From a virus (Duplodnaviria; Caudoviricetes): a stretch of 64,000 nt of DNA. A program made the position numbers and the translations under genes. How positions within the stretch are numbered: position 1 is the stretch's first letter; each line of letters begins with the position of its first letter. Under the pieces are notes generated by a model, which was not told where the DNA came from, did no database searches, and worked only from the letters and a program-made list of their open reading frames with translations. Below, in pieces: positions 8,343-35,534 of the stretch. The stretch lies in the IMG/VR virus record IMGVR_UViG_3300042307_000844; one strand, given 5' to 3'.

Positions 8343-9368
8343 TTAGCGGAAGAAATCTTCTGCCTGTCTAATATCCGAAACTTTGTTCTGCTTGCCCATA
8401 TCAGGTTGCTTTGCACCGTGGAGAGCGTGACCATAATCACCGTCATTACCAACCTTATCAGTGGTTCCCACTACCTTGGTTTTTTGGTTTTTTGGTTGGG
8501 GACGGCCATTAACCTTGTTGCTACGACCTTGGAGCTTGTGTTGTTGACCACCACCCTTGCCATCCTTGGCACCTACGGTTCCGTCATTACCAACCTTGTC
8601 AGTTGGAAACGTTCCGCGCTCTTCATCTTCGTCATAAGAGAAATCATCTTCTTCTTCGTTATCTTCATCCATTTCGTCGTCTCCTCCGAAATCATCGCCT
8701 TCATCAAAGTCCAGATCATCTCCTTCGTCTTCCATACCACCATCAAGAACTCCCATCAAAACATCGTGAAGCTTTTGTGCTGTGGCACGATCAAGAGTAA
8801 ATGTAACTTGGTCTTCATCGTCACCGAATTCGTCATCTCCAAACTCATCGTCCATGGGAGCATCACCAAGGCCGAGGGCATCAACTTCTTGAGCATCCTC
8901 TTGCTGGTCAAAATTATTACCCATAACGGATTCAAACAACTTATCAAATGTAGATTTCTTAGTCATAAATGTATTTAGTCTATCTCTTGCAATTTTTTTA
9001 GATTCCTTGTGAATTCTCTCTTCCGCTTCCTCTCTTTGGATTCCACTCTCCATTCTTGCAATTTCTTTTTTAAGAGATTCCTTCTGTTTATCAGAAAGAT
9101 TGGGATTCTTCAACTTTTCTTTAAGTTTATCAAGATTAGCATACTTACGCTCTTCATCCTCATCATAAGTATCATTCAAAGCTTTGTGATAACCGCTTTT
9201 CTCAGATGGACCACCTTTTTGCAAGGGATTTGTTTCGTTGAAAGCGTTTTTGGATTGCTTGGGAATTTTTTTGGACTTGTTGATGTTTTCCTGTGCGTTC
9301 TCTTGAACGACTTGAACACTGTTCAGCATTTGTCCATATATATCTCCCAATGTCGGTTGTTTTTTCAT
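8343..9368 (-). CDS. Highly acidic prohead core / scaffold-like protein
   Basis: Long D/E tracts plus basic Gly-rich tail; probable start MKKQPTLGDIY (9368), 4 nt after the upstream stop; internal in-frame start at 8966. Confidence 0.55.
   Translation of the reverse strand: MKKQPTLGDIYGQMLNSVQVVQENAQENINKSKKIPKQSKNAFNETNPLQKGGPSEKSGYHKALNDTYDEDEERKYANLDKLKEKLKNPNLSDKQKESLKKEIARMESGIQREEAEERIHKESKKIARDRLNTFMTKKSTFDKLFESVMGNNFDQQEDAQEVDALGLGDAPMDDEFGDDEFGDDEDQVTFTLDRATAQKLHDVLMGVLDGGMEDEGDDLDFDEGDDFGGDDEMDEDNEEEDDFSYDEDEERGTFPTDKVGNDGTVGAKDGKGGGQQHKLQGRSNKVNGRPQPKNQKTKVVGTTDKVGNDGDYGHALHGAKQPDMGKQNKVSDIRQAEDFFR
8972..8978 (-). promoter_or_regulatory. Intragenic late promoter box before in-frame Met at 8966
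   Basis: CTAAATA-CATTT-ATG inside the coding sequence. Confidence 0.65.
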
Positions 9369-9372
9369 ATAA

Positions 9373-9738
9373 TTATTGTTGGTAAAGTGTATCGTGGACG
9401 GTGATAGTTCCAGCACTGAGGTTTGCGGTAAATGAGTGGGTGGGATACTTGACATCAACCGTTGCTCCATCCCCTTTGGCCAACATCAGAATAAATTGTG
9501 TAAGCTCCCCATGGAATTGAAAAATCTTAAAAACATCCGACCCCATCTCATCAATTATTTCCTGCGGAGTGAGGGTTTCGTCCTCCCAAACAATCTCAAT
9601 ACCTTCTCGTTGGGTTCTCACCAAATTACTGAAACATTCCTTGGAAAGATTTTTGATACGGGATACCGCTTGTTTCAATAGGACTTCCTTATTGGGTGTC
9701 GGGGGTGGTGGTAGTGTGTTATTACCTAGTATAGACAT
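9373..9738 (-). CDS. Hypothetical protein
   Basis: 121-aa ORF, 5 nt after CTAAATA. Confidence 0.7.
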   Translation of the reverse strand: MSILGNNTLPPPPTPNKEVLLKQAVSRIKNLSKECFSNLVRTQREGIEIVWEDETLTPQEIIDEMGSDVFKIFQFHGELTQFILMLAKGDGATVDVKYPTHSFTANLSAGTITVHDTLYQQ

Positions 9739-9743
9739 ATCAT

Positions 9744-9750
9744 TATTTAG
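9744..9750 (-). promoter_or_regulatory. Late promoter box
   Basis: CTAAATA-ATGAT-ATG. Confidence 0.7.
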
Positions 9751-10542
9751 TCATTTCTTCCAAAATTCATAACCATCCAATCCTTTACATATTTCATCCC
9801 CCAAAATTTCTTTAGCTTTTGAACTGGATGGGGTGACTTTACTCTTAATTTTATGTAAATCGACATAATTATAAACACCATCATCTTCTGGTGTTTGGTT
9901 CAATATGTTTTCAAAATCATGTTCACATTTGGGTATATTGAGGAAATCCCAAATTACGTCCATGACAATTTTAGGATTATGTGTCAGGTAATCATAATCC
10001 ACCAAAAGGAATCTATCCCCCAATCCTCTTAAAAAAGCATCCTTCAATATTGCGTAAGCAGCACCGACTTCCCCCTCCAAACTTGCCCAATGCATCATCC
10101 TACCTTCAGTTGTTAAACATTGGGGCATTGGTCCTTGGGGGTTGAACTTGTAGGAACCCTTTCGATATAATAATTCGAAAGACGCAAGAACATCCTTTAT
10201 ATCTCTAACTGGTGCTATGATCTTGGTTTTTTTATTGGTGATTGCCTCCAACATTTCAATGGAGAATCCCCACCCCCTACATTTGTCGATGACATACGGT
10301 TTTTCGGTATTATGGTAGGAATGTAATACAGTGTTGAGGATACGCTTCAAATTTTCATCATTACCAGCGTTTTTATCAGATCGATGTTCAATGATATTAC
10401 CCCACGATGTTTTGATATTATTCATCAATTGATTCAAACCCGATGTAGGAGTACAGAATACTTTAGGATTTTGTGCCATCAGATTCATCAGAAGAGTGCT
10501 TCCCGATCTGGGTAAGCCAGACACATAAAATATATCTCTCAT
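9751..10542 (-). CDS. Sulfotransferase family protein
   Basis: PAPS-binding loop GLPRSGSTLL; IDKCRGW; IIAPVRDIKDVLASF; LLVDYDYLTHNP...IWDFL. Confidence 0.85.
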   Translation of the reverse strand: MRDIFYVSGLPRSGSTLLMNLMAQNPKVFCTPTSGLNQLMNNIKTSWGNIIEHRSDKNAGNDENLKRILNTVLHSYHNTEKPYVIDKCRGWGFSIEMLEAITNKKTKIIAPVRDIKDVLASFELLYRKGSYKFNPQGPMPQCLTTEGRMMHWASLEGEVGAAYAILKDAFLRGLGDRFLLVDYDYLTHNPKIVMDVIWDFLNIPKCEHDFENILNQTPEDDGVYNYVDLHKIKSKVTPSSSKAKEILGDEICKGLDGYEFWKK

Positions 10543-11411
10543 TTTATGATGTTTTCGATATTGAAAATTTGATAAATATTATCATATGGGCATTCATGGA
10601 TGATTCCATTGAAACTATAATCATATAAATACGAATTAATATTACCCTTTGGAAAGGTAACAGGGGGAGTTATATTATTATGCATGTCATAACCAAATAC
10701 TTCCGGTTGTGTCCCAACCCACACCACTGTTGATGGTAATCCCATGGCAGCCGCAGCATGTTGTAAAGAAGAGTCGATTAGAATTCTTTTTTTAGAAAGA
10801 TTCAACATGGCACATAAAATCTTTTTATTTTGATTTTTATCATAGCGAATCACATTTTGTAATTGAGGATGGTGGGGGTGACAAATATGCAATATCGTAT
10901 ATTGTTCTTTAAGATTATTGATTATTTGTTGAGCAATGAAAGGATGAATATCCCTTGTCCATGAGTATGGAAATTCTTGGTTTTGTGCGCCTCCAAATGG
11001 TTGGAAGATGAGAATGGGTTTATCAGTTTGAGGTAGTAACGCTCTGGGTATTTCCCCTTCCCTAAAATTAAAATAAATGTTTGGATTTAAACCATCGTAA
11101 TTAATCCCTATCATATCACACCACGATTTCACCAGAGGTTGTTGTTTGGTGATATGATTTGTTGTTTTATATGGATCATGTGCAAATATTTCACAATCTT
11201 TATCGAAGATAAAGTCCTCATAAAAATACGGAGTATTTCCCAATAGATAACACCTATCAATATCAGGATTTCCTTGAAAAATGTCAGGATATGCAGAATT
11301 TACTATAATGTTGTGGATTGGATGTTCCTTTTTATAGGAACGGATAACCGAAGTGGCTACAATGTTTTTACCCAACCCCCCCTCAATATGAAAAATAGCA
11401 TTTTTTATCAT
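10539..11411 (-). CDS. Glycosyltransferase, GT9 (heptosyltransferase)-like GT-B fold
   Basis: HIEGGLGKNIVATSVIR at the N-terminus; ILIDSSLQHAAAAMGLPSTVVW at the C-terminus. Confidence 0.7.
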   Translation of the reverse strand: MIKNAIFHIEGGLGKNIVATSVIRSYKKEHPIHNIIVNSAYPDIFQGNPDIDRCYLLGNTPYFYEDFIFDKDCEIFAHDPYKTTNHITKQQPLVKSWCDMIGINYDGLNPNIYFNFREGEIPRALLPQTDKPILIFQPFGGAQNQEFPYSWTRDIHPFIAQQIINNLKEQYTILHICHPHHPQLQNVIRYDKNQNKKILCAMLNLSKKRILIDSSLQHAAAAMGLPSTVVWVGTQPEVFGYDMHNNITPPVTFPKGNINSYLYDYSFNGIIHECPYDNIYQIFNIENIIK

Positions 11412-11416
11412 ATTGC

Positions 11417-11424
11417 TATTTATA
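11417..11424 (-). promoter_or_regulatory. Late promoter, exact T4 consensus, for GT9-like plus sulfotransferase
   Basis: TATAAATA-GCAAT-ATG. Confidence 0.8.
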
Positions 11425-11429
11425 TAACA

Positions 11430-12659
11430 TTAAACGGAAAGCAACGCTATTTTCTTCATAGTTCCATTTATGTTTACAACTAAACAGTTGCCGCTATTAA
11501 CAGTTGATAGTGGGTATGCTGACGACCCCAACACTAATTGATTGTGTGATGTGGGGATGGCACAAGAGCCAAGGGCGATTGAAGCTGATAGAGAGGCACC
11601 GTTACCTGCGTTATAACCAATGAATATAGAGTGACATGCGTTTGTGGCACCGTTACCTGCGTTATAACCAAGGAAATTGGAGTTGGATGCGCATGTGGCA
11701 CAGTAACCTGCGCGATTACCAAAGAAATTGGAGTTGGATGCGTTTGTGGCACCGTTACCTGAACATCGACCAAAGAAATTGGAGTTGGATGCGTTCGTGG
11801 CACCGTTACCTGCGTTTGAACCAAAGAAATTGGAGTTACCTGTGTTCGTGACACCGTTACCTGCGTTTGAACCAAAGAAATTGGAGTTGTTTGTGAACGT
11901 GGCACCGTTACCTGCGTTATAACCAAGGAAATTGGATCTAAATGCGCCTGTGGCACCGTTACCTGCGCCATTACCAAGGAAATTGGAGTTGGATGCGATC
12001 GTGGCACCGTTACCTGAACATCGACCAAAGAAATTGGAGTTGGATGCGCATGTGGCACCGTTACCTGCGTTATAACCAAGGAAATTGGAGTTGGATGCGC
12101 ATGTGGCACAGTTACCTACACCATTACCAAAGAAATTGGAGTTGGATGCGCATGTGGCACCGTTACCTACACCATTACCAAAGAAATTGGAGTTGGATGC
12201 GTTCGTGGCACCGTTACCTGAACATCGACCAAAGAAATTGGAGTTGGATGCGTTCGTGGCACCGTTACCTGCGTTATAACCAAGGAAATTGGAGAAACAT
12301 GCGCATGTGGCACCGTTACCTGCGCGATTACCACCAAACAAACTATTACCACCCACTGTCGCAGATAAAGGAAATCCTCCGACATTTATTGAACTTGTGG
12401 TGAACGTTTGGGTAGATGAAAAATTATTATTGACATTAACCTTTGCATAATTGGCGGAATTTGAGGAAAATGTGGTGTAAGTGTTTTGCCAATTGGCAGA
12501 TAAGGTAGAAACATCAGAACCCCGCCCAATAAAATTACTCAAAACACTGGAATAAGTGCTTCCATTTTGATTGATGATAGCCACTTCATTACCAATAATG
12601 GGTAATGTTGCGGATGGTATTTGAGAAATCTTCGGCATACGATTATTTAATGTTGACAT
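11430..12659 (-). CDS. Fibre-like beta-solenoid protein with about 14-15 17-aa repeats
   Basis: Repeats GxxAGNGATxASNSNF(F/L); N-terminal PKISQIP...IIGNEVAIINQNGSTY attachment-like segment. Confidence 0.7.
   Translation of the reverse strand: MSTLNNRMPKISQIPSATLPIIGNEVAIINQNGSTYSSVLSNFIGRGSDVSTLSANWQNTYTTFSSNSANYAKVNVNNNFSSTQTFTTSSINVGGFPLSATVGGNSLFGGNRAGNGATCACFSNFLGYNAGNGATNASNSNFFGRCSGNGATNASNSNFFGNGVGNGATCASNSNFFGNGVGNCATCASNSNFLGYNAGNGATCASNSNFFGRCSGNGATIASNSNFLGNGAGNGATGAFRSNFLGYNAGNGATFTNNSNFFGSNAGNGVTNTGNSNFFGSNAGNGATNASNSNFFGRCSGNGATNASNSNFFGNRAGYCATCASNSNFLGYNAGNGATNACHSIFIGYNAGNGASLSASIALGSCAIPTSHNQLVLGSSAYPLSTVNSGNCLVVNINGTMKKIALLSV
11570..12332 (-). repeat. 51-bp coding tandem repeat, 14 full units plus one degenerate
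   Basis: Unit on + strand e.g. ggcaccgttacctgcgttataaccaaggaaattggagttggatgcgcatgt. Confidence 0.9.
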
Positions 12660-12689
12660 ATGAAAAACTCTAAATAAATTCCTACATCG

Positions 12690-12908
12690 ATGAAAAAGAA
12701 TACGATACTGAAAAAATTGGAACTACACGAAGAGAAAATCATCAAATCCATTATGGATTTACAGGATTTCCTTCATACCGTGGATGACGAAGAGATTTCC
12801 CAAATGGCTGATGATTTATGTGAGGGCATACAGGGATATCTATACGAAAATGATATTTGTAATTTGGAAAACGTTCGGGAATTTATTGAAAACGTATATG
12901 AAGCTTAA
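12690..12908 (+). CDS. Small acidic hypothetical protein
   Basis: 72-aa ORF overlapping the start of the next gene. Confidence 0.6.
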   Translation: MKKNTILKKLELHEEKIIKSIMDLQDFLHTVDDEEISQMADDLCEGIQGYLYENDICNLENVREFIENVYEA

Positions 12909-13812
12909 TTTATTAATTTTAGGAAAAGGTTACGTCAGCAATCACCTCTTCAATCATCTGAAAAATGATTTTAACGTGATTATCCAATCGGCTAAAGAAA
13001 TGGATTACCACAATGCAAATACATTACATAAATTTCTTCTCAATAATGATATTGACACGGTGATCAATTGTTCAGGATTCACGGGAAGACCCAATATTGA
13101 CGAAGCTGAGAAAAAAAAAGAGCTTTGTTGGGATTTGAACACAACATCTCCTCTAAGAGTGAATGCCATATGCAATACCAGAAATATAAATTATCTTCAT
13201 ATCTCATCTGGTTGTGTTTATGATGGTTATGAGAAAGTGTGGAGTGAGGAAGATTCCCCGAATTATGGATTGTTCTGTAACAGGGCTTCATTCTACTCCA
13301 AATCCAAACACGCTTTTGAAAACCTATCAAAAACCATGGATAATATAATTCTGCGCGTTCGTATGCCATTCCATTACGAATCATCTGGTAGGAATTATTT
13401 GAACAAAATTAGACAATACAACGATCTGATCAATTTCCGCAATTCCAAGACATATATTCCCGATTTCTGCGAATTTGTAAGAAATCTTTTGATTAAAAAA
13501 GTCGGTAAATGGAAAGGACAGAACATCTACAATGTCATCAATCCGGGGGCATTGACCACTCAGGAAGTATGTGATATTATGAAAGAATACGGTTTCCACA
13601 ACGATAATTGGAAATTCGTATATCTTGCCGATCTTCCCATTGCCACGGGTAGGAGCAATTGCGTTCTGGATGGCTCAAAATCGAAGGAAATCTATGAGAT
13701 GCGATTTGAGAAAGATGTAATGAAAGAATGCTTCAATAAAATGCTTGAGAAACAAGCGGAAGACAAGAGAATCAAACAAGAAATAGAGGAAAAATATGCA
13801 AGAGAATATTAA
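12898..13812 (+). CDS. RmlD-like / NRS-ER-type NDP-4-keto-6-deoxyglucose epimerase-reductase (SDR)
   Basis: Start moved to MKLNLLILGKGYVS (Rossmann); VINCSGFTGRPNIDEAE; HISSGCVYDG; SFYSKSK (YxxxK); LRVRMP. Confidence 0.8.
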   Translation: MKLNLLILGKGYVSNHLFNHLKNDFNVIIQSAKEMDYHNANTLHKFLLNNDIDTVINCSGFTGRPNIDEAEKKKELCWDLNTTSPLRVNAICNTRNINYLHISSGCVYDGYEKVWSEEDSPNYGLFCNRASFYSKSKHAFENLSKTMDNIILRVRMPFHYESSGRNYLNKIRQYNDLINFRNSKTYIPDFCEFVRNLLIKKVGKWKGQNIYNVINPGALTTQEVCDIMKEYGFHNDNWKFVYLADLPIATGRSNCVLDGSKSKEIYEMRFEKDVMKECFNKMLEKQAEDKRIKQEIEEKYAREY

Positions 13813-14548
13813 GCGTGGTATTGTGCTTTCGGGTGGGAGGGCAACCCGTCTTTACCCTGTAACCAAGGTAATATCAAAACAGCTTTTAAATTTATACAAT
13901 AAGCCCGTCATTGCATTTCCACTCCAAACACTGAAGGATATGGGATATGTTGACATTCTCATTATTAATGCCGATGAGGATCAACAGAAACAATTCAAGA
14001 TTCTGCTTGGAGATGGAAGTAAATTCGGATTGAATCTTTCTTACGCTATTCAAGATTCCCCAAAGGGATTGGTGGATGCTTTCATTGTTGGAGAGGAATT
14101 TATCAAAGATGCTGATGAAATATGCTTAATTCTTGGAGATAATGTCATTATTGGCAATTCCCCCATTCATCCCCAACCAAACACTATTTACACCTACAAG
14201 GTAAAAGACCCTTCAGCATATGGTGTAGTTGAAACGGATGAAAACGATAATATTATTCAAATTGTGGAAAAACCCAAGGAATTCATCTCAGAGGATGCTG
14301 TGATTGGTCTTTACGTGTTTTCCAATGAAGTTGTGGAAATGGCTAAAAAGGTAAAACCATCTGCTAGGGGAGAACTGGAAATCGTTGACCTGATTCGTTT
14401 GATGAATGATAAAGAAGGTGTAGGGGTTGAGAAATTGGATGGATTTTGGTTCGACGTTGGCACATTTTCTAGTTTATTGGATTGTGCTAATCTTGTTAGA
14501 ACTATCGATGAACGCTCAAATCACTCAATCGGGCTTGATTTGTCTTGA
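13796..14548 (+). CDS. rmlA: Glucose-1-phosphate thymidylyltransferase
   Basis: GIVLSGGRATRLYPVTKVISKQLL; QDSPKGLVDAF; ILGDN; IVEKP; PSARGELEI; WFDVGT. Confidence 0.9.
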   Translation: MQENIKRGIVLSGGRATRLYPVTKVISKQLLNLYNKPVIAFPLQTLKDMGYVDILIINADEDQQKQFKILLGDGSKFGLNLSYAIQDSPKGLVDAFIVGEEFIKDADEICLILGDNVIIGNSPIHPQPNTIYTYKVKDPSAYGVVETDENDNIIQIVEKPKEFISEDAVIGLYVFSNEVVEMAKKVKPSARGELEIVDLIRLMNDKEGVGVEKLDGFWFDVGTFSSLLDCANLVRTIDERSNHSIGLDLS

Positions 14549-14562
14549 ATGTGTGATAATTT
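14535..14562 (+). promoter_or_regulatory. Sigma70-like promoter for gp44
   Basis: TTGATT-N16-TAATTT-N6-ATG. Confidence 0.5.
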
Positions 14563-14568
14563 CCAATC

Positions 14569-15492
14569 ATGGAAGAGCAAATTTGGGTGGAAAAATACAG
14601 ACCACAGACCTTGGATGATCTGATGGTAGATGATAATACTAGAAAAATTATTCAAAATTTTGGTAAAAAAATACCCCATTTATTGTTGACTGGTAAACCC
14701 GGAGTGGGAAAAACCACCTTAGCTAAAATCATCGCCAAAGATATTCTCAACTGTGACTTTTTATATATAAATGCTTCCGATGAGAATGGTATTGACACCA
14801 TCAGGGAAAAAGTAATTGGGTTTGCACAGACAAGAAGCTTTGACGGGGGGTTGAAAATCATCATCCTTGATGAGTGTGATGGGCAAAGCAAAAATGCTCA
14901 AAATGCTCTTCGCAATGTGATGGAGTCTTACGCATCAACCACCAGATTCATCCTAACTGGTAATAATAAATATAAGATTGAACCCGCCCTACAATCCCGT
15001 TGCCAGAGTCTCACGCTCCATACATCCCTGAAAGATGTCACCCGTAGGTGTCTGGAGATTCTGAAAAAGGAAAATGTTGAGATTCCTGATAACCAGAAGA
15101 AACCTTTGGTTGCCCTGATCAAAAGCCATTATCCTGATATCAGAAAATGTATCAATGAATTGGAAAAATATTCCAAATCCGGTATTCTCTCCATTGAGAC
15201 GAAAAAAGACACCAATCAGGTGATGGATTTGATTTACACCAATCTCCAATCGGGAGATACTTTGAAAACACGTAAATTCCTGATTGAGAACGAGGAATTA
15301 TTCGATTCCGATCACGAATCTTTGTTGAAAGACCTTTTGAATTATTTCTACGATCTCTCCATGGATGATACCACAAAAAAACAGGCTATCCTTATCATTG
15401 CGGAGAGCCTGTTTAAGATGATGTCCGTTACGGACAGAGAGATTTGTGCTATTGCTTGCTTGCTACAGCTTGAGGAATTATTTCCAGAATAA
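14569..15492 (+). CDS. gp44: Clamp loader AAA+ subunit (T4 gp44 / RFC-like)
   Basis: WVEKYRPQTL; GKPGVGKTT; INASDENGID; IILDECD; QNALRNVME; LQSRC. Confidence 0.93.
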   Translation: MEEQIWVEKYRPQTLDDLMVDDNTRKIIQNFGKKIPHLLLTGKPGVGKTTLAKIIAKDILNCDFLYINASDENGIDTIREKVIGFAQTRSFDGGLKIIILDECDGQSKNAQNALRNVMESYASTTRFILTGNNKYKIEPALQSRCQSLTLHTSLKDVTRRCLEILKKENVEIPDNQKKPLVALIKSHYPDIRKCINELEKYSKSGILSIETKKDTNQVMDLIYTNLQSGDTLKTRKFLIENEELFDSDHESLLKDLLNYFYDLSMDDTTKKQAILIIAESLFKMMSVTDREICAIACLLQLEELFPE

Positions 15493-16170
15493 TTTATCCA
15501 AATCCTCTTCTGCCTCTGATGGAGAACCCGGAAGATATTTATCTAAGCGGTTTTGCACAATCTTGCTCTTGTTTGGGTTTTGAATTATTTCAGAATTCTC
15601 TACATCCATTTGCTGTTGTGGTAAAGGAGGAGGTGTTGCACCAGATTGTTTTGGTAAAGGAGGAGGTGTTGCACCAGATTGTTTTGGTAAAGGGGGAGGT
15701 GTTGCACCAGATTGTTGTGGTAGCGGAGGAGGTGTTGCACCACTCACGCTTTTCTTGAGGTGTCCGAGAGCAGCATTGATACCAGACACAATTTCAATGT
15801 TACCAATGTCCAACCCAAGCTTTTTAATATCATTTTTAATATCAGCGACAAATGAGTCAATACGTTTGTCAATATTCTTTTGAAGATACTGGACTTTAGC
15901 ATTGTGACCAGAAACCATACCTTCTCCCGATGCTTGTTGACCTTGTTGGGAATATTCCTGACCTTTTCTGGATAACTTATCACTTTCAATCCAATCTCCA
16001 GCTTTGCTAAGGGCAGAACCACCAGCTTGTTGAAAACCACCTTTGATTTGTTGACCCAAACCCTTGGCGGAACCCAGAGCTTCGGCTCCCCGTGCCTTGA
16101 GACGATCCATCCATCCTTCCTCAAGAAGTTCTTCCAAATTGCGCTGGTCTTTGTTATTGAATTGTGCCAT
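15478..16170 (-). CDS. Hypothetical protein with four SGATPPPLP repeats, probable head-internal protein
   Basis: N-terminal LEELLEE followed by GWMDRLKARGA; Gly/Gln-rich middle; Pro-rich repeats. Confidence 0.65.
   Translation of the reverse strand: MAQFNNKDQRNLEELLEEGWMDRLKARGAEALGSAKGLGQQIKGGFQQAGGSALSKAGDWIESDKLSRKGQEYSQQGQQASGEGMVSGHNAKVQYLQKNIDKRIDSFVADIKNDIKKLGLDIGNIEIVSGINAALGHLKKSVSGATPPPLPQQSGATPPPLPKQSGATPPPLPKQSGATPPPLPQQQMDVENSEIIQNPNKSKIVQNRLDKYLPGSPSEAEEDLDKLFWK
15614..15744 (-). repeat. 33-bp coding tandem repeat x4 (SGATPPPLP[K/Q]Q)
   Basis: + strand ggtaaaggaggaggtgttgcaccagattgtttt repeated. Confidence 0.85.
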
Positions 16171-34209: not shown

Positions 34210-34686
34210 ATGCCTACAAGCACCACCACTACTCTCTCAGGCACCACCACTCCAACGCCTACTACAAGCACCACGACTGCTCCATCAGACACCACGACTA
34301 CTACAAGCACCACGACTGCTCCATCAGACACCACGACTACTACAAGCACCACGACTGCTCCATCAGACACCACTACAGAACCCCCCATCACTACAGAACC
34401 CCCCACCACTACAGAACCCCCCACAACACCATCTTTAAGTTGTTGCGCTCCCCCTCCAAACCCACCAGTAATCAATCCCCCCATCATTCTGAACTTTACA
34501 ACACGAACCATTCCCCCGTTAGTGATTGATATAACACCCCCGACATCTCTCAATCCATTTACCATTCAAATAACTACGACCACCACAACAACGACTACGA
34601 CCACAACGACCACAACAACTGTTCCAAGAACTGGAACAGTTGTGCCTATTGAATGTGAAAGTTATTGTAAAAAGCTTGGGTTCTGA
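34210..34686 (+). CDS. Mucin-like Thr/Pro-rich protein
   Basis: TTSTTTAPSDTTT repeats, TTEPP repeats, poly-Thr tract, terminal CESYC. Confidence 0.65.
   Translation: MPTSTTTTLSGTTTPTPTTSTTTAPSDTTTTTSTTTAPSDTTTTTSTTTAPSDTTTEPPITTEPPTTTEPPTTPSLSCCAPPPNPPVINPPIILNFTTRTIPPLVIDITPPTSLNPFTIQITTTTTTTTTTTTTTTTVPRTGTVVPIECESYCKKLGF
34261..34425 (+). repeat. 39-bp x about 3 then 18-bp x3 coding repeats
   Basis: actacaagcaccacgactgctccatcagacaccacgact; actacagaacccccca(tc/cc/ca). Confidence 0.85.
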
Positions 34687-34697
34687 TAATTATTAAC

Positions 34698-35534
34698 ATG
34701 CGAAAACTCACGATTGGTATTCCCACCTATAATGATTATGATGGATTATATTTCAGCATTCAAGCCATTAGAACATATCATCGGGAAGTTATAGATGATA
34801 TTGAATTTATTATTATTGATAATAATCCTGATTCTCCCCATGGGCAATCCAATAGGAATCTCACGAATTGGATCAAAGAACCTTTTCAATACCTCCCATT
34901 CACCAAATACAACGCATCCACCGTTAAAAATAAGGTGTTTTCCCTATCGGATACCCCTTATACCCTATGCATGGATAGCCATGTGATGATTGTCCCCGGT
35001 GCCTTGAAAAAGCTGATCCATTTATACGATTGTGGTGGAGATGGTGGAAATCTTTTACAAGGTCCTCTGCTTTATGATGATTTCCATCATTATTCCACCC
35101 ACTTTGATGACACTTGGAGTTCCCATATGTGGGGAACGTGGCAAACGGATGAGAGGGGCAAGGAAACGGATGCTCCCCCCTTTGAAATACCAGCCCAAGG
35201 CATGGGACTGTTCTCCTGTAGGACAGACTCATGGTTGGGATTCAACAAAGCTTTTAGGGGCTTTGGGGGGGAGGAGAAGTATATCCATGAGAAATACCGC
35301 CAACACGGTAAGAAGACGCTCTGCTTGCCCTTCCTGCGTTGGTTACACCGCTTTGAGCGTCCTGCTGGTATCCCATACAAGAATGATCTCAAGGATCGCT
35401 TTCGTAATTACATGATTGGGCATCACGAATTGGGGCAAGATACCAAAGTTCTCAAGGAACAGTTCAAAGGGGTCGTATCAGTGGAAGATATGAACAAGAT
35501 TGAAGTGGAAGCTACGATATTATCAAAATTATAA
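34698..35534 (+). CDS. Glycosyltransferase family 2 (GT-A)
   Basis: LTIGIPTYNDY; EFIIIDNN; TLCMDSHV (DxH); FRGFGGEE; ATAATTA box 5 nt upstream. Confidence 0.85.
   Translation: MRKLTIGIPTYNDYDGLYFSIQAIRTYHREVIDDIEFIIIDNNPDSPHGQSNRNLTNWIKEPFQYLPFTKYNASTVKNKVFSLSDTPYTLCMDSHVMIVPGALKKLIHLYDCGGDGGNLLQGPLLYDDFHHYSTHFDDTWSSHMWGTWQTDERGKETDAPPFEIPAQGMGLFSCRTDSWLGFNKAFRGFGGEEKYIHEKYRQHGKKTLCLPFLRWLHRFERPAGIPYKNDLKDRFRNYMIGHHELGQDTKVLKEQFKGVVSVEDMNKIEVEATILSKL

Follow-up and report, generated by a model that had tools for sequence, protein, structure and literature searches.

What is the target of a glycosyltransferase and a sulfotransferase which a tailed phage encodes directly behind the gene of a repeat-rich fibre? 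The question is raised by positions 9,751 to 14,548 of a 64,000-nucleotide stretch of DNA, here called the window, from the IMG/VR virus record IMGVR_UViG_3300042307_000844 (Duplodnaviria; Caudoviricetes). The window corresponds to G000:C1:66719-130718, minus strand, of a record of 177,639 bp with a CheckV completeness of 87%. The phage encodes a large terminase of T4 type and a clamp loader of gp44 type; the terminase is only about 31% identical to its counterparts in cultured phages. On the minus strand of the window the order is fibre, glycosyltransferase (GT), sulfotransferase and a gene for a protein of 121 amino acids (aa). Divergently, on the plus strand, a 72-aa open reading frame (ORF) is followed by an NRS/ER-type gene, an RmlA-like gene and the clamp loader. 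An initial annotation, made from the letters alone, had proposed a module of glycosylation and sulfation that coats the virion with a sulfated glycan. Its five gene calls, i.e., fibre, GT, sulfotransferase, epimerase-reductase and RmlA, all hold and every element is located where it had been placed. Because the pair of fibre and GT recurs in related aquatic contigs and in the cultured podophage HTVC111P, we conclude that the fibre itself is the most likely target of the enzymes.

The evidence which carries this conclusion is comparative. In 80 IMG/VR loci ORFs were called and the neighbours of the GT labelled. Its immediate upstream neighbour is a co-directional gene for a protein rich in Gly, Asn, Ser, Thr and Ala (G/N/S/T/A) in 33 of 34 GT clusters formed at 90% identity, in 21/21 clusters at 80% and in 13/13 at 70%. 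As a background, among the remaining 626 genes of at least 200 aa the share with such a content of these residues is only 3.7%. The upstream proteins consist of G/N/S/T/A to 44-71%, are 225-1414 aa long and often possess an N-terminal I-S/T-x-L-P motif. The type of repeat varies by lineage, e.g., 17-aa NSNF units in the window and GGGxxN-type units in marine contigs. What is kept upstream of the GT is the class of protein, not its sequence. Long JGI/ENA contigs from lakes and oceans are organised like the window: clamp loader, RmlA and NRS/ER share a strand, and the opposite strand carries repeat protein, GT, sulfotransferase and a small gene. The fibre-GT pair is constant while its flanks, the downstream genes included, vary between loci. 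Of 79 loci, 42 contain the sulfotransferase, which occupies one of three positions: behind the GT, ahead of it, or in inverted orientation between GT and fibre. An NRS/ER-like gene is located at most 7.2 kb from the GT in 28 of the 34 loci with a full upstream flank, in sulfotransferase-bearing and sulfotransferase-lacking clades alike.

The pair is also found in an unrelated phage. In HTVC111P, a cultured Pelagibacter (SAR11) podophage of 31.6 kb, gp52, annotated as tail fibre, is directly followed by the GT9-like gp53. gp52 carries YadA-like NTAIG...NTTG repeats and a C-terminal Peptidase_S74 chaperone; gp53 is a homologue of the window GT with 30% identity and a weak match to PF01075. The initial annotation had named the co-occurrence of GT, sulfotransferase and fibre in related genomes as a check on the fibre as target. 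With an adjacency that is near-universal in the 80 loci and extends to HTVC111P this idea is much strengthened. An alternative, in which the fibre is a mere neighbour, is a remodelling of the host envelope: GT and sulfotransferase would act on the core of the host lipopolysaccharide (LPS), on a capsule or on another surface glycan, directed against superinfection or against progeny sticking to debris. GT clusters of aquatic phages are usually read in this manner (PMC12801897). The alternative does not explain why GT and repeat fibre are neighbours in 21/21 clusters and again in an unrelated podophage, and we consider it unlikely.

The neighbourhood of GT9-like genes in further lineages is instructive about the product. 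A Kyanoviridae single-cell virus, AG-345-L05 (MH319754.1, 119000-133000), has a 916-aa Laminin_G protein, a 2-oxoglutarate-Fe(II) oxygenase, a sulfotransferase, DUF7936, a GT9-like protein and a carbamoyltransferase. The latter, 3' of the GT9-like gene, is of NodU type as in Synechococcus phage S-SSM7 (97344-108114), also a member of the Kyanoviridae. In S-SSM7 the NodU-type carbamoyltransferase and Nol come after a GT9-like domain, and a tail-fibre-like gene is located 4 kb upstream of it. Carbamoyltransferases decorate sugars. In a Bacteroidota metagenome-assembled genome (MAG) of Flavipsychrobacter (98-kb contig CAYSIG010000016.1, 85440-98288) two copies of the GT9 subfamily are in tandem, one of them fused to an FkbM methyltransferase. 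This locus also contains a homologous sulfotransferase, a GNAT protein and an adenosine 5'-phosphosulfate (APS) kinase, and it adjoins a type IX secretion adhesin with SprB repeats and CHU_C, PorP/SprF and an OmpA-TPR protein. Since carbamoyl- and methyltransferases stand in the place of the sulfotransferase, it can be argued that the product of the GT is a glycan which is decorated further. The Flavipsychrobacter locus is one of only two matches to the GT subfamily in 185,579 prokaryote genomes, scanned by short peptide patterns. The other is a low-GC contig with a phage layout, mis-binned into a Beijerinckiaceae MAG. Within the limits of such a pattern scan, this near absence from prokaryotes is a further point against host remodelling.

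Which kind of enzyme is the GT? The protein (10539..11411, minus strand, 290 aa) is, by fold and motif, a compact GT-B glycosyltransferase of GT9 (heptosyltransferase) type. It has no match in Pfam or NCBIfam and is below the gathering threshold of PF01075. An AlphaFold2 model built on 41 homologues has a pLDDT of 92 and a pTM of 0.90. In a Foldseek search of the PDB with this model, ranks 1-29 are all GT9 enzymes, i.e., 3tov from Veillonella, WaaF (1psw), WaaC (2gt1/2h1h/6dfe) and TibC (4rap/4rb4), with E values of 1e-11 to 2e-6 and TM scores of 0.54-0.70. The motif IDSSLQHAAAA aligns to the donor-site motif of WaaC and WaaF: IDSSLQHAAAAMGLP in the GT corresponds to VDTGLSHLTAALDRP in WaaC and DSGLMHVAAALNRP in WaaF, with the common pattern D-(S/T)-(G/S)-x-x-H-x-A-A-A followed by P...G. 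Sequence comparisons are at the margin. Among PDB sequences the profile of homologues reaches WaaC at no better than E 1.7, and hhalign against WaaF gives E 1.2e-4 with 55% probability. Metagenomic homologues number 2,526 at E<=1e-3, some of them labelled ADP-heptose:LPS heptosyltransferase by JGI; one homologue (P0120) carries PF01075, and HTVC111P gp53 scores 19.6 bits with a cut-off of 22. Thus, the 'GT9-like' designation of the initial annotation is right at the level of fold and motif, albeit below the thresholds of sequence families.

These similarities have to be weighed in two directions. The characterised GT9 enzymes are mostly heptosyltransferases of the LPS core, the top folds are WaaF and WaaC and the JGI names say the same, all of which speaks for an action on the host surface. 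Yet the window GT differs from WaaC/WaaF (GT9; PDB 2GT1, 1PSW), with which it shares best folds and donor-site motif, by its score below the PF01075 threshold, the context of a fibre gene and the lack of LPS genes nearby, and by its acceptor domain. The N-domain, i.e., the acceptor side, is acidic with an isoelectric point (pI) of 5.7; in E. coli WaaC and WaaF this domain, which binds lipid A/Kdo, is basic (pI 9.7-10). The fibre is basic, too (pI 9.1). Genes of an ADP-heptose pathway with PF01467 (CTP_transf_like) and PF13580 (SIS) are absent from the phage. One may also ask whether the GT is an enzyme at all. Genes right after phage fibre genes often code for chaperones, and a protein below the GT9 family thresholds could have retained the fold alone and serve as a non-catalytic assembly factor or chaperone of the fibre. 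We regard this as very improbable. D213, S214, Q217 and H218 are invariant in 41 homologues of 52-85% identity, as are the complete motif DSSLQH-AAAA and about 54 other residues, and the GT gene is tied to genes for sugar nucleotides and for the decoration of sugars. A complex prediction of the GT with fibre residues 100-300 gave a score of 0.00; calculated without controls, it counts neither for nor against binding.

The closest functional precedent is that of the bacterial autotransporter heptosyltransferases (BAHT). TibC and AAH are GT9-related, are encoded beside TibA and AIDA-I, respectively, and O-heptosylate multiple Ser residues in Ser/Asn/Gly/Ala/Thr-rich solenoid repeats in the cytoplasm (PMC4358343; PDB 4RAP, 4RB4). 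The phage GT shares the GT9-related GT-B core, TibC is among its top folds and its gene adjoins that of a repeat protein of presumed beta-solenoid type. By analogy, the phage GT may work like a BAHT enzyme. It is not a member of this family. It has 290 aa vs 406 in TibC and about 12% identity. The model opens with the first Rossmann domain (strand 4-9, helix 13-29), i.e., an N-terminal beta-barrel is missing. Its only invariant Cys residues, C98, C177 and C274, are spread out, and the iron finger of four Cys is missing which TibC uses for its dodecamer (C339, C342, C358, C370; PMC4358343). BAHT enzymes use ADP-heptose, whereas phage-made rhamnose is a candidate donor here. Further, in the phage a sulfotransferase is attached and a fibre takes the place of the autotransporter as presumed substrate.

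The putative acceptor, the fibre, is encoded by an ORF of 409 aa (11430..12659, minus strand). Tandem Repeats Finder reports a 51-bp repeat with 14.3 copies at 11595-12324 within the gene. At the protein level the unit has 17 aa and is present in 14 copies with the consensus FFGNNAGNGATNASNSN. G/N/S/T/A make up 67% of the fibre, and Asp plus Glu amount to 2 residues in all. The ESM Atlas model of exactly this protein (pTM 0.67) resembles YadA-head adhesins and clusters of phage fibres with S74 chaperones with TM scores of 0.61-0.72. The fibre has no match in Pfam, YadA_head repeats included, and tblastn with the complete fibre or its first 100 residues against phage records returned no match. 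Translation of the fibre most likely begins at an internal ATG (12638) and not at the first one (12659), giving 402 aa, because the resulting N-terminus MPKISQIP fits that of relatives, which begin with MxxKISxLP, and because a box of TAAATA-N5 type precedes it (TAAATA at 12644..12649, minus strand, 5 nt 5' of the ATG).

The initial annotation had singled out repeated Asn-Ala-Ser, i.e., N-x-S, in the fibre as candidate acceptors. This part has to be abandoned. Asn-Ala-Ser is present in only 4/14 repeats, and the position of the Asn alternates with Cys. N-x-S/T sequons number 8 in the fibre against 16.4 +/- 3.2 expected from its composition, i.e., they are depleted by half, and the Asn is not conserved. 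As a separate observation, the fibre carries 14 Cys. Their place in the repeat varies (position 5, 9 or 12), with Asn or Gly as the alternative residue; in related fibres Cys makes up 2-7%.

The sulfotransferase (9751..10542, minus strand, 263 aa) is of the type that uses 3'-phosphoadenosine 5'-phosphosulfate (PAPS). It scores 50 bits with PF13469 (Sulfotransfer_3; cut-off 27) and 43 bits with PF00685 (Sulfotransfer_1; cut-off 22), and it matches phrog_27463 at 3.5e-53. The AlphaFold2 model has a pLDDT of 89. In 20 homologues the PAPS-binding motifs are invariant, i.e., the PRSGST loop (P11, R12, G14, S15, T16) and R113...S121. The start codon overlaps the stop codon of the GT in an ATGA, as read directly in the sequence, which bears out the 4-nt overlap of the initial annotation and implies translational coupling to the GT. 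A search for genes of PAPS synthesis, for which the initial annotation had called, found neither APS kinase nor ATP sulfurylase in the phage genome. A weak APS-kinase match at G000:165175 is a KaiC/RecA-like ATPase, and with ATP sulfurylase missing too a supply of PAPS by the phage is rejected. PAPS must therefore be supplied by the host, which fits an earlier suspicion and can also be counted for an action on host glycans, as the phage depends on host PAPS and possibly on host sugar donors. The role of phage sulfotransferases was stated to be unclear in a 2023 paper (PMC10580990).

Where is the sulfate placed? We assume on a glycan. Foldseek places the model nearest to the tyrosylprotein sulfotransferases TPST1/2 (PDB 5WRJ, 3AP1), which account for the 13 best matches at E of about 2e-9; heparan sulfate 3-OST and the CurM sulfotransferase follow. 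TPST1/2 are the best sequence matches, too, with about 20% identity, and the motifs for binding of the 5'-phosphosulfate (5'-PSB) and of the 3'-phosphate (3'-PB) are common to both. These similarities suggest a scheme of two separate protein modifications in which the GT glycosylates the fibre and the sulfotransferase directly sulfates its Tyr or Ser/Thr residues. Tyr does recur in the fibre repeats (FLGYNAG), and fibres adjoining a sulfotransferase have 3.6% Tyr vs 2.35% in those without, yet this difference rests on one loss event. In siphophage S-SKS1 a sulfotransferase is flanked by a G/N/S/T/A-rich protein on either side, and its vicinity contains no GT9. Against direct sulfation stands the replacement of the catalytic Glu: the segment CGEETR of TPST, after the PSB loop, aligns with CTPTSG in the phage enzyme, in which T31, T33, S34 and G35 are invariant instead. 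Membership in the TPST family was therefore rejected. The repeats lack the acidic context preferred by TPSTs, with two Asp and Glu residues in the entire fibre. Lastly, the enzymes which replace the sulfotransferase beside the GT are decorators of sugars (carbamoyltransferase, FkbM methyltransferase). We thus rate direct sulfation of the protein as rather improbable, slightly more so than host remodelling. As an observation on its own, the two proteins of S-SKS1 (HQ633071, 203159-206345) share an N-terminal segment ...NFESWPESATYGYFGGG.

Which sugar could be transferred? The plus strand holds candidates. The epimerase-reductase most likely starts at 12898, behind the 72-aa ORF, while a start at 12784 is unlikely; this gives a protein of 304 aa (12898..13812) which, by PDB matches and motifs, is an NDP-4-keto-6-deoxyglucose 3,5-epimerase/4-reductase of NRS/ER type. 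The best PDB matches are Arabidopsis NRS/ER (4qqr, 9e-23) and Mimivirus L780 (7jid, 1.2e-13), and RmlD structures follow at 2e-6 or weaker. The motifs TGRPN, SGC, YSKxK, LRVRMP and RSN are kept. In Pfam the protein matches RmlD_sub_bind; with TIGR01214 (rmlD) it scores only 67 with a cut-off of 224. The RmlA-like sugar-1-phosphate nucleotidyltransferase (13796..14548, plus strand, 250 aa) scores 182 bits with Pfam NTP_transferase. Its best NCBIfam model is rmlA, TIGR01207, with 249 bits, i.e., below the equivalog cut-off of 360.65, and it is about 40 aa shorter at the C-terminus. The initial annotation had noted that an RmlB-type dehydratase was not seen in the window. This is correct; an RmlB-like dTDP-glucose 4,6-dehydratase is encoded elsewhere in the genome, at G000:C1:141255-142223 (plus strand; TIGR01181, 327 bits), about 10.5 kb before the start of the window, unlinked to the module and among genes without a family. 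RmlC (PF00908) is absent from the phage genome, as is to be expected since the NRS/ER-type enzyme would carry out both steps.

Judged by these gene products, the RmlA-like, RmlB-like and NRS/ER-type proteins make up a complete three-enzyme route to a sugar of the NDP-L-rhamnose type in the style of plants and giant viruses. As in the UDP-L-rhamnose route of NRS/ER and Mimivirus L780, a bifunctional 3,5-epimerase/4-reductase with its motifs kept would replace RmlC and RmlD. The difference is that in this tailed phage its partners are RmlA-like and RmlB-like enzymes of bacterial type; the nucleotide could be dTDP or UDP. The conserved 72-aa ORF (12690..12908, plus strand), which has no Pfam family, heads the divergent operon, and its last 11 nt overlap the NRS/ER gene as read from the likely start. 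Its homologues have 67-75 aa and occupy the same place in two long contigs (L002, L010) and in 29 IMG/VR loci.

When are these genes expressed? The initial annotation argued for a late timing from a promoter-like box in front of the GT. This box, TATAAATA, is located at 11424-11417 (11417..11424, minus strand), 5 nt 5' of the GT ATG. By itself, the octamer shows no enrichment in the window (7 vs 4.9 expected). Genome-wide, 30 genes have TAAATA at a distance of exactly 5 nt from the start codon and 6 more have it at 6 nt. Such genes comprise many large ORFs of the tail-fibre region of the window, mostly without a named family, and both terminase halves; examples of the boxes in the window are at 11417, 9744, 17247, 24702 and 31763. 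The sharp position-specificity of TAAATA-N5-ATG indicates a real late-type box. The gene for the 121-aa protein has a CTAAATA-N5-ATG box directly 3' of the sulfotransferase stop codon. If started at 12638, the fibre has a late box, too, at the same spacing as other late genes. With boxes before fibre, GT and 121-aa gene, and the sulfotransferase coupled to the GT, a late timing is supported. Because the spacing leaves no room for a Shine-Dalgarno sequence, late mRNAs may be near-leaderless. Facing the sugar-nucleotide genes on the plus strand, a consensus scan found a sigma-70-like match, TTGACA-16-TAAATT, with 10/12 positions (12653..12680); this is a pattern match only.

The timing bears on two rivals of fibre decoration. 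A remodelling of the host envelope would be carried out by enzymes made when lysis is near. The other rival is a hypermodification of DNA, i.e., sugar and sulfate would be put onto bases of the phage genome. T4-like phages glucosylate their DNA and, according to work cited in PMC12619734, virus GTs can hypermodify DNA. The late-type boxes, a GT9 fold that is unlike known DNA glycosyltransferases and the strict linkage of GT and fibre argue against it, and nothing in the module suggests a hydroxymethylation of bases. The probability of DNA as a target is minute, lower even than that of a non-catalytic GT.

We propose the following sequence of events. The NRS/ER and RmlA genes are probably transcribed from an early-type promoter along with the clamp loader, and together with the RmlB-like enzyme their products would provide an NDP-6-deoxyhexose, most likely dTDP- or UDP-L-rhamnose, as a donor. 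Late in infection fibre, GT9-type transferase and coupled sulfotransferase would be produced together. In the cytoplasm the GT would then O-glycosylate Ser/Thr residues of the 17-aa, presumably beta-roll repeats, possibly with the phage-made rhamnose, as TibC and AAH do with the repeats of TibA and AIDA-I. Finally, the sulfotransferase would sulfate the attached sugar at the expense of host PAPS, by which an almost uncharged fibre would gain a negatively charged glycan surface. We give this scheme as a whole an even chance of being correct. With considerably more reserve a generalisation can be contemplated: the compact GT9 subfamily, widespread and phage-specific with its 2,526 metagenomic homologues, might be the dedicated fibre glycosyltransferases of aquatic phages, about half of the sampled lineages adding a TPST-like sulfation of the glycan, with a rhamnose donor made in the style of plants and giant viruses and a module common to adhesin loci of Bacteroidota.

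Several points weigh against fibre decoration. The chemistry, the location of the fibre on the virion and the biological role are all matters which we infer. GT9 enzymes classically act on the LPS core. The GT itself is below the Pfam thresholds for GT9, and its sugar donor is not readable from the sequence. The charge argument for GT and fibre is weak since the pI of the N-domain ranges from 5.3 to 9.7 across the family. GT-bearing genomes without Rml genes exist, and one genome of 93% completeness (G002) is without RmlA; the donor thus need not be rhamnose. Among solved structures, protein-tyrosine sulfotransferases come closest to the sulfotransferase, and so a protein could be the acceptor of the sulfate. 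The 80 T4-like loci are all related to each other, thus part of the synteny is inheritance. The loci lacking the sulfotransferase form a single clade on the GT tree, corresponding to about one loss. RmlA is near in 14/18 loci with and in 0/16 without the sulfotransferase, a co-variation which is essentially one event because of this single clade. Consequently, neither this correlation nor that of the sulfotransferase with Tyr was used as independent evidence.

A literature search of partial coverage returned no description of a phage GT9-fibre module or of a phage module for fibre sulfation. The linkage of fibre and GT, the pair in HTVC111P and the GT9-sulfotransferase pair of Bacteroidota with an APS kinase are new in this analysis. 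The nearest phage precedent is the glycosylation of mycobacteriophage virions (Freeman et al., 2023, PMC10527164, as cited in PMC12619734 and PMC12801897). There, too, GTs are encoded among structural genes and glycans are thought or shown to be on virion proteins. Going by the citing papers, capsid and tail-tube proteins are modified at their C-termini, other GT families are involved, and neither sulfation nor a dedicated sugar-nucleotide pathway is described.

Genes for sugar and sulfate transfer in aquatic phages are usually filed as 'auxiliary', altering host surface or DNA. A conserved module of fibre, GT9 and sulfotransferase would suggest that such enzymes act on the fibres of the phage itself. 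If true, virion glycosylation would extend from actinophages to abundant aquatic phages, those of SAR11 included. Sulfation would be a new virion modification, and these would be the first tailed-phage virions known with a sulfated glycoprotein. If receptor-binding or whisker fibres bear a charged glycan, this could influence the host range, the adhesion to particles or mucus, and the resistance to proteases or grazers. As the cultured HTVC111P carries the fibre-GT pair a direct test is possible, and the size of the proteins is suited to co-expression and mass spectrometry.

A few observations concern the surroundings of the module. A blastn search of positions 9000-16000 against phage records returned no match. 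The 121-aa protein (9373..9738, minus strand), the last gene of the run of fibre, GT and sulfotransferase, has no assigned function: Pfam, PHROG and NCBIfam contain no family above cut-off, the best being a sub-threshold match to Pfam Glyco_transf_6 (18 bits vs 25). Its homologues are located 3' of the sulfotransferase in two long contigs (L002, L004) and in 9 IMG/VR loci, and it is possibly an accessory part of the module. The module is adjoined by a 375-aa protein without a family match (8343-9470, minus strand), homologues of which are near the GT in 44 related loci in either orientation.

The phage has further sugar-related genes at a distance. A second glycan island at G000:C1:43044-49981, beyond the end of the window, comprises an RmlD-like short-chain dehydrogenase/reductase, a PseB-like 4,6-dehydratase, two methyltransferases, DUF3431 and GT17, GT11, GT2 and GT7C-like transferases. 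All genes of this island are co-directional with an adjoining 1340-aa protein that has a BppL_N-like segment. Within the window, at 34210-35534 (plus strand), a Thr/Pro-rich protein of 158 aa (55% G/N/S/T/A, no Pfam family) is directly followed by a GT2 at the end of a series of Mtd_N/Gly_rich_2 fibre genes, and the two are a second candidate pair of acceptor and enzyme in the same phage.

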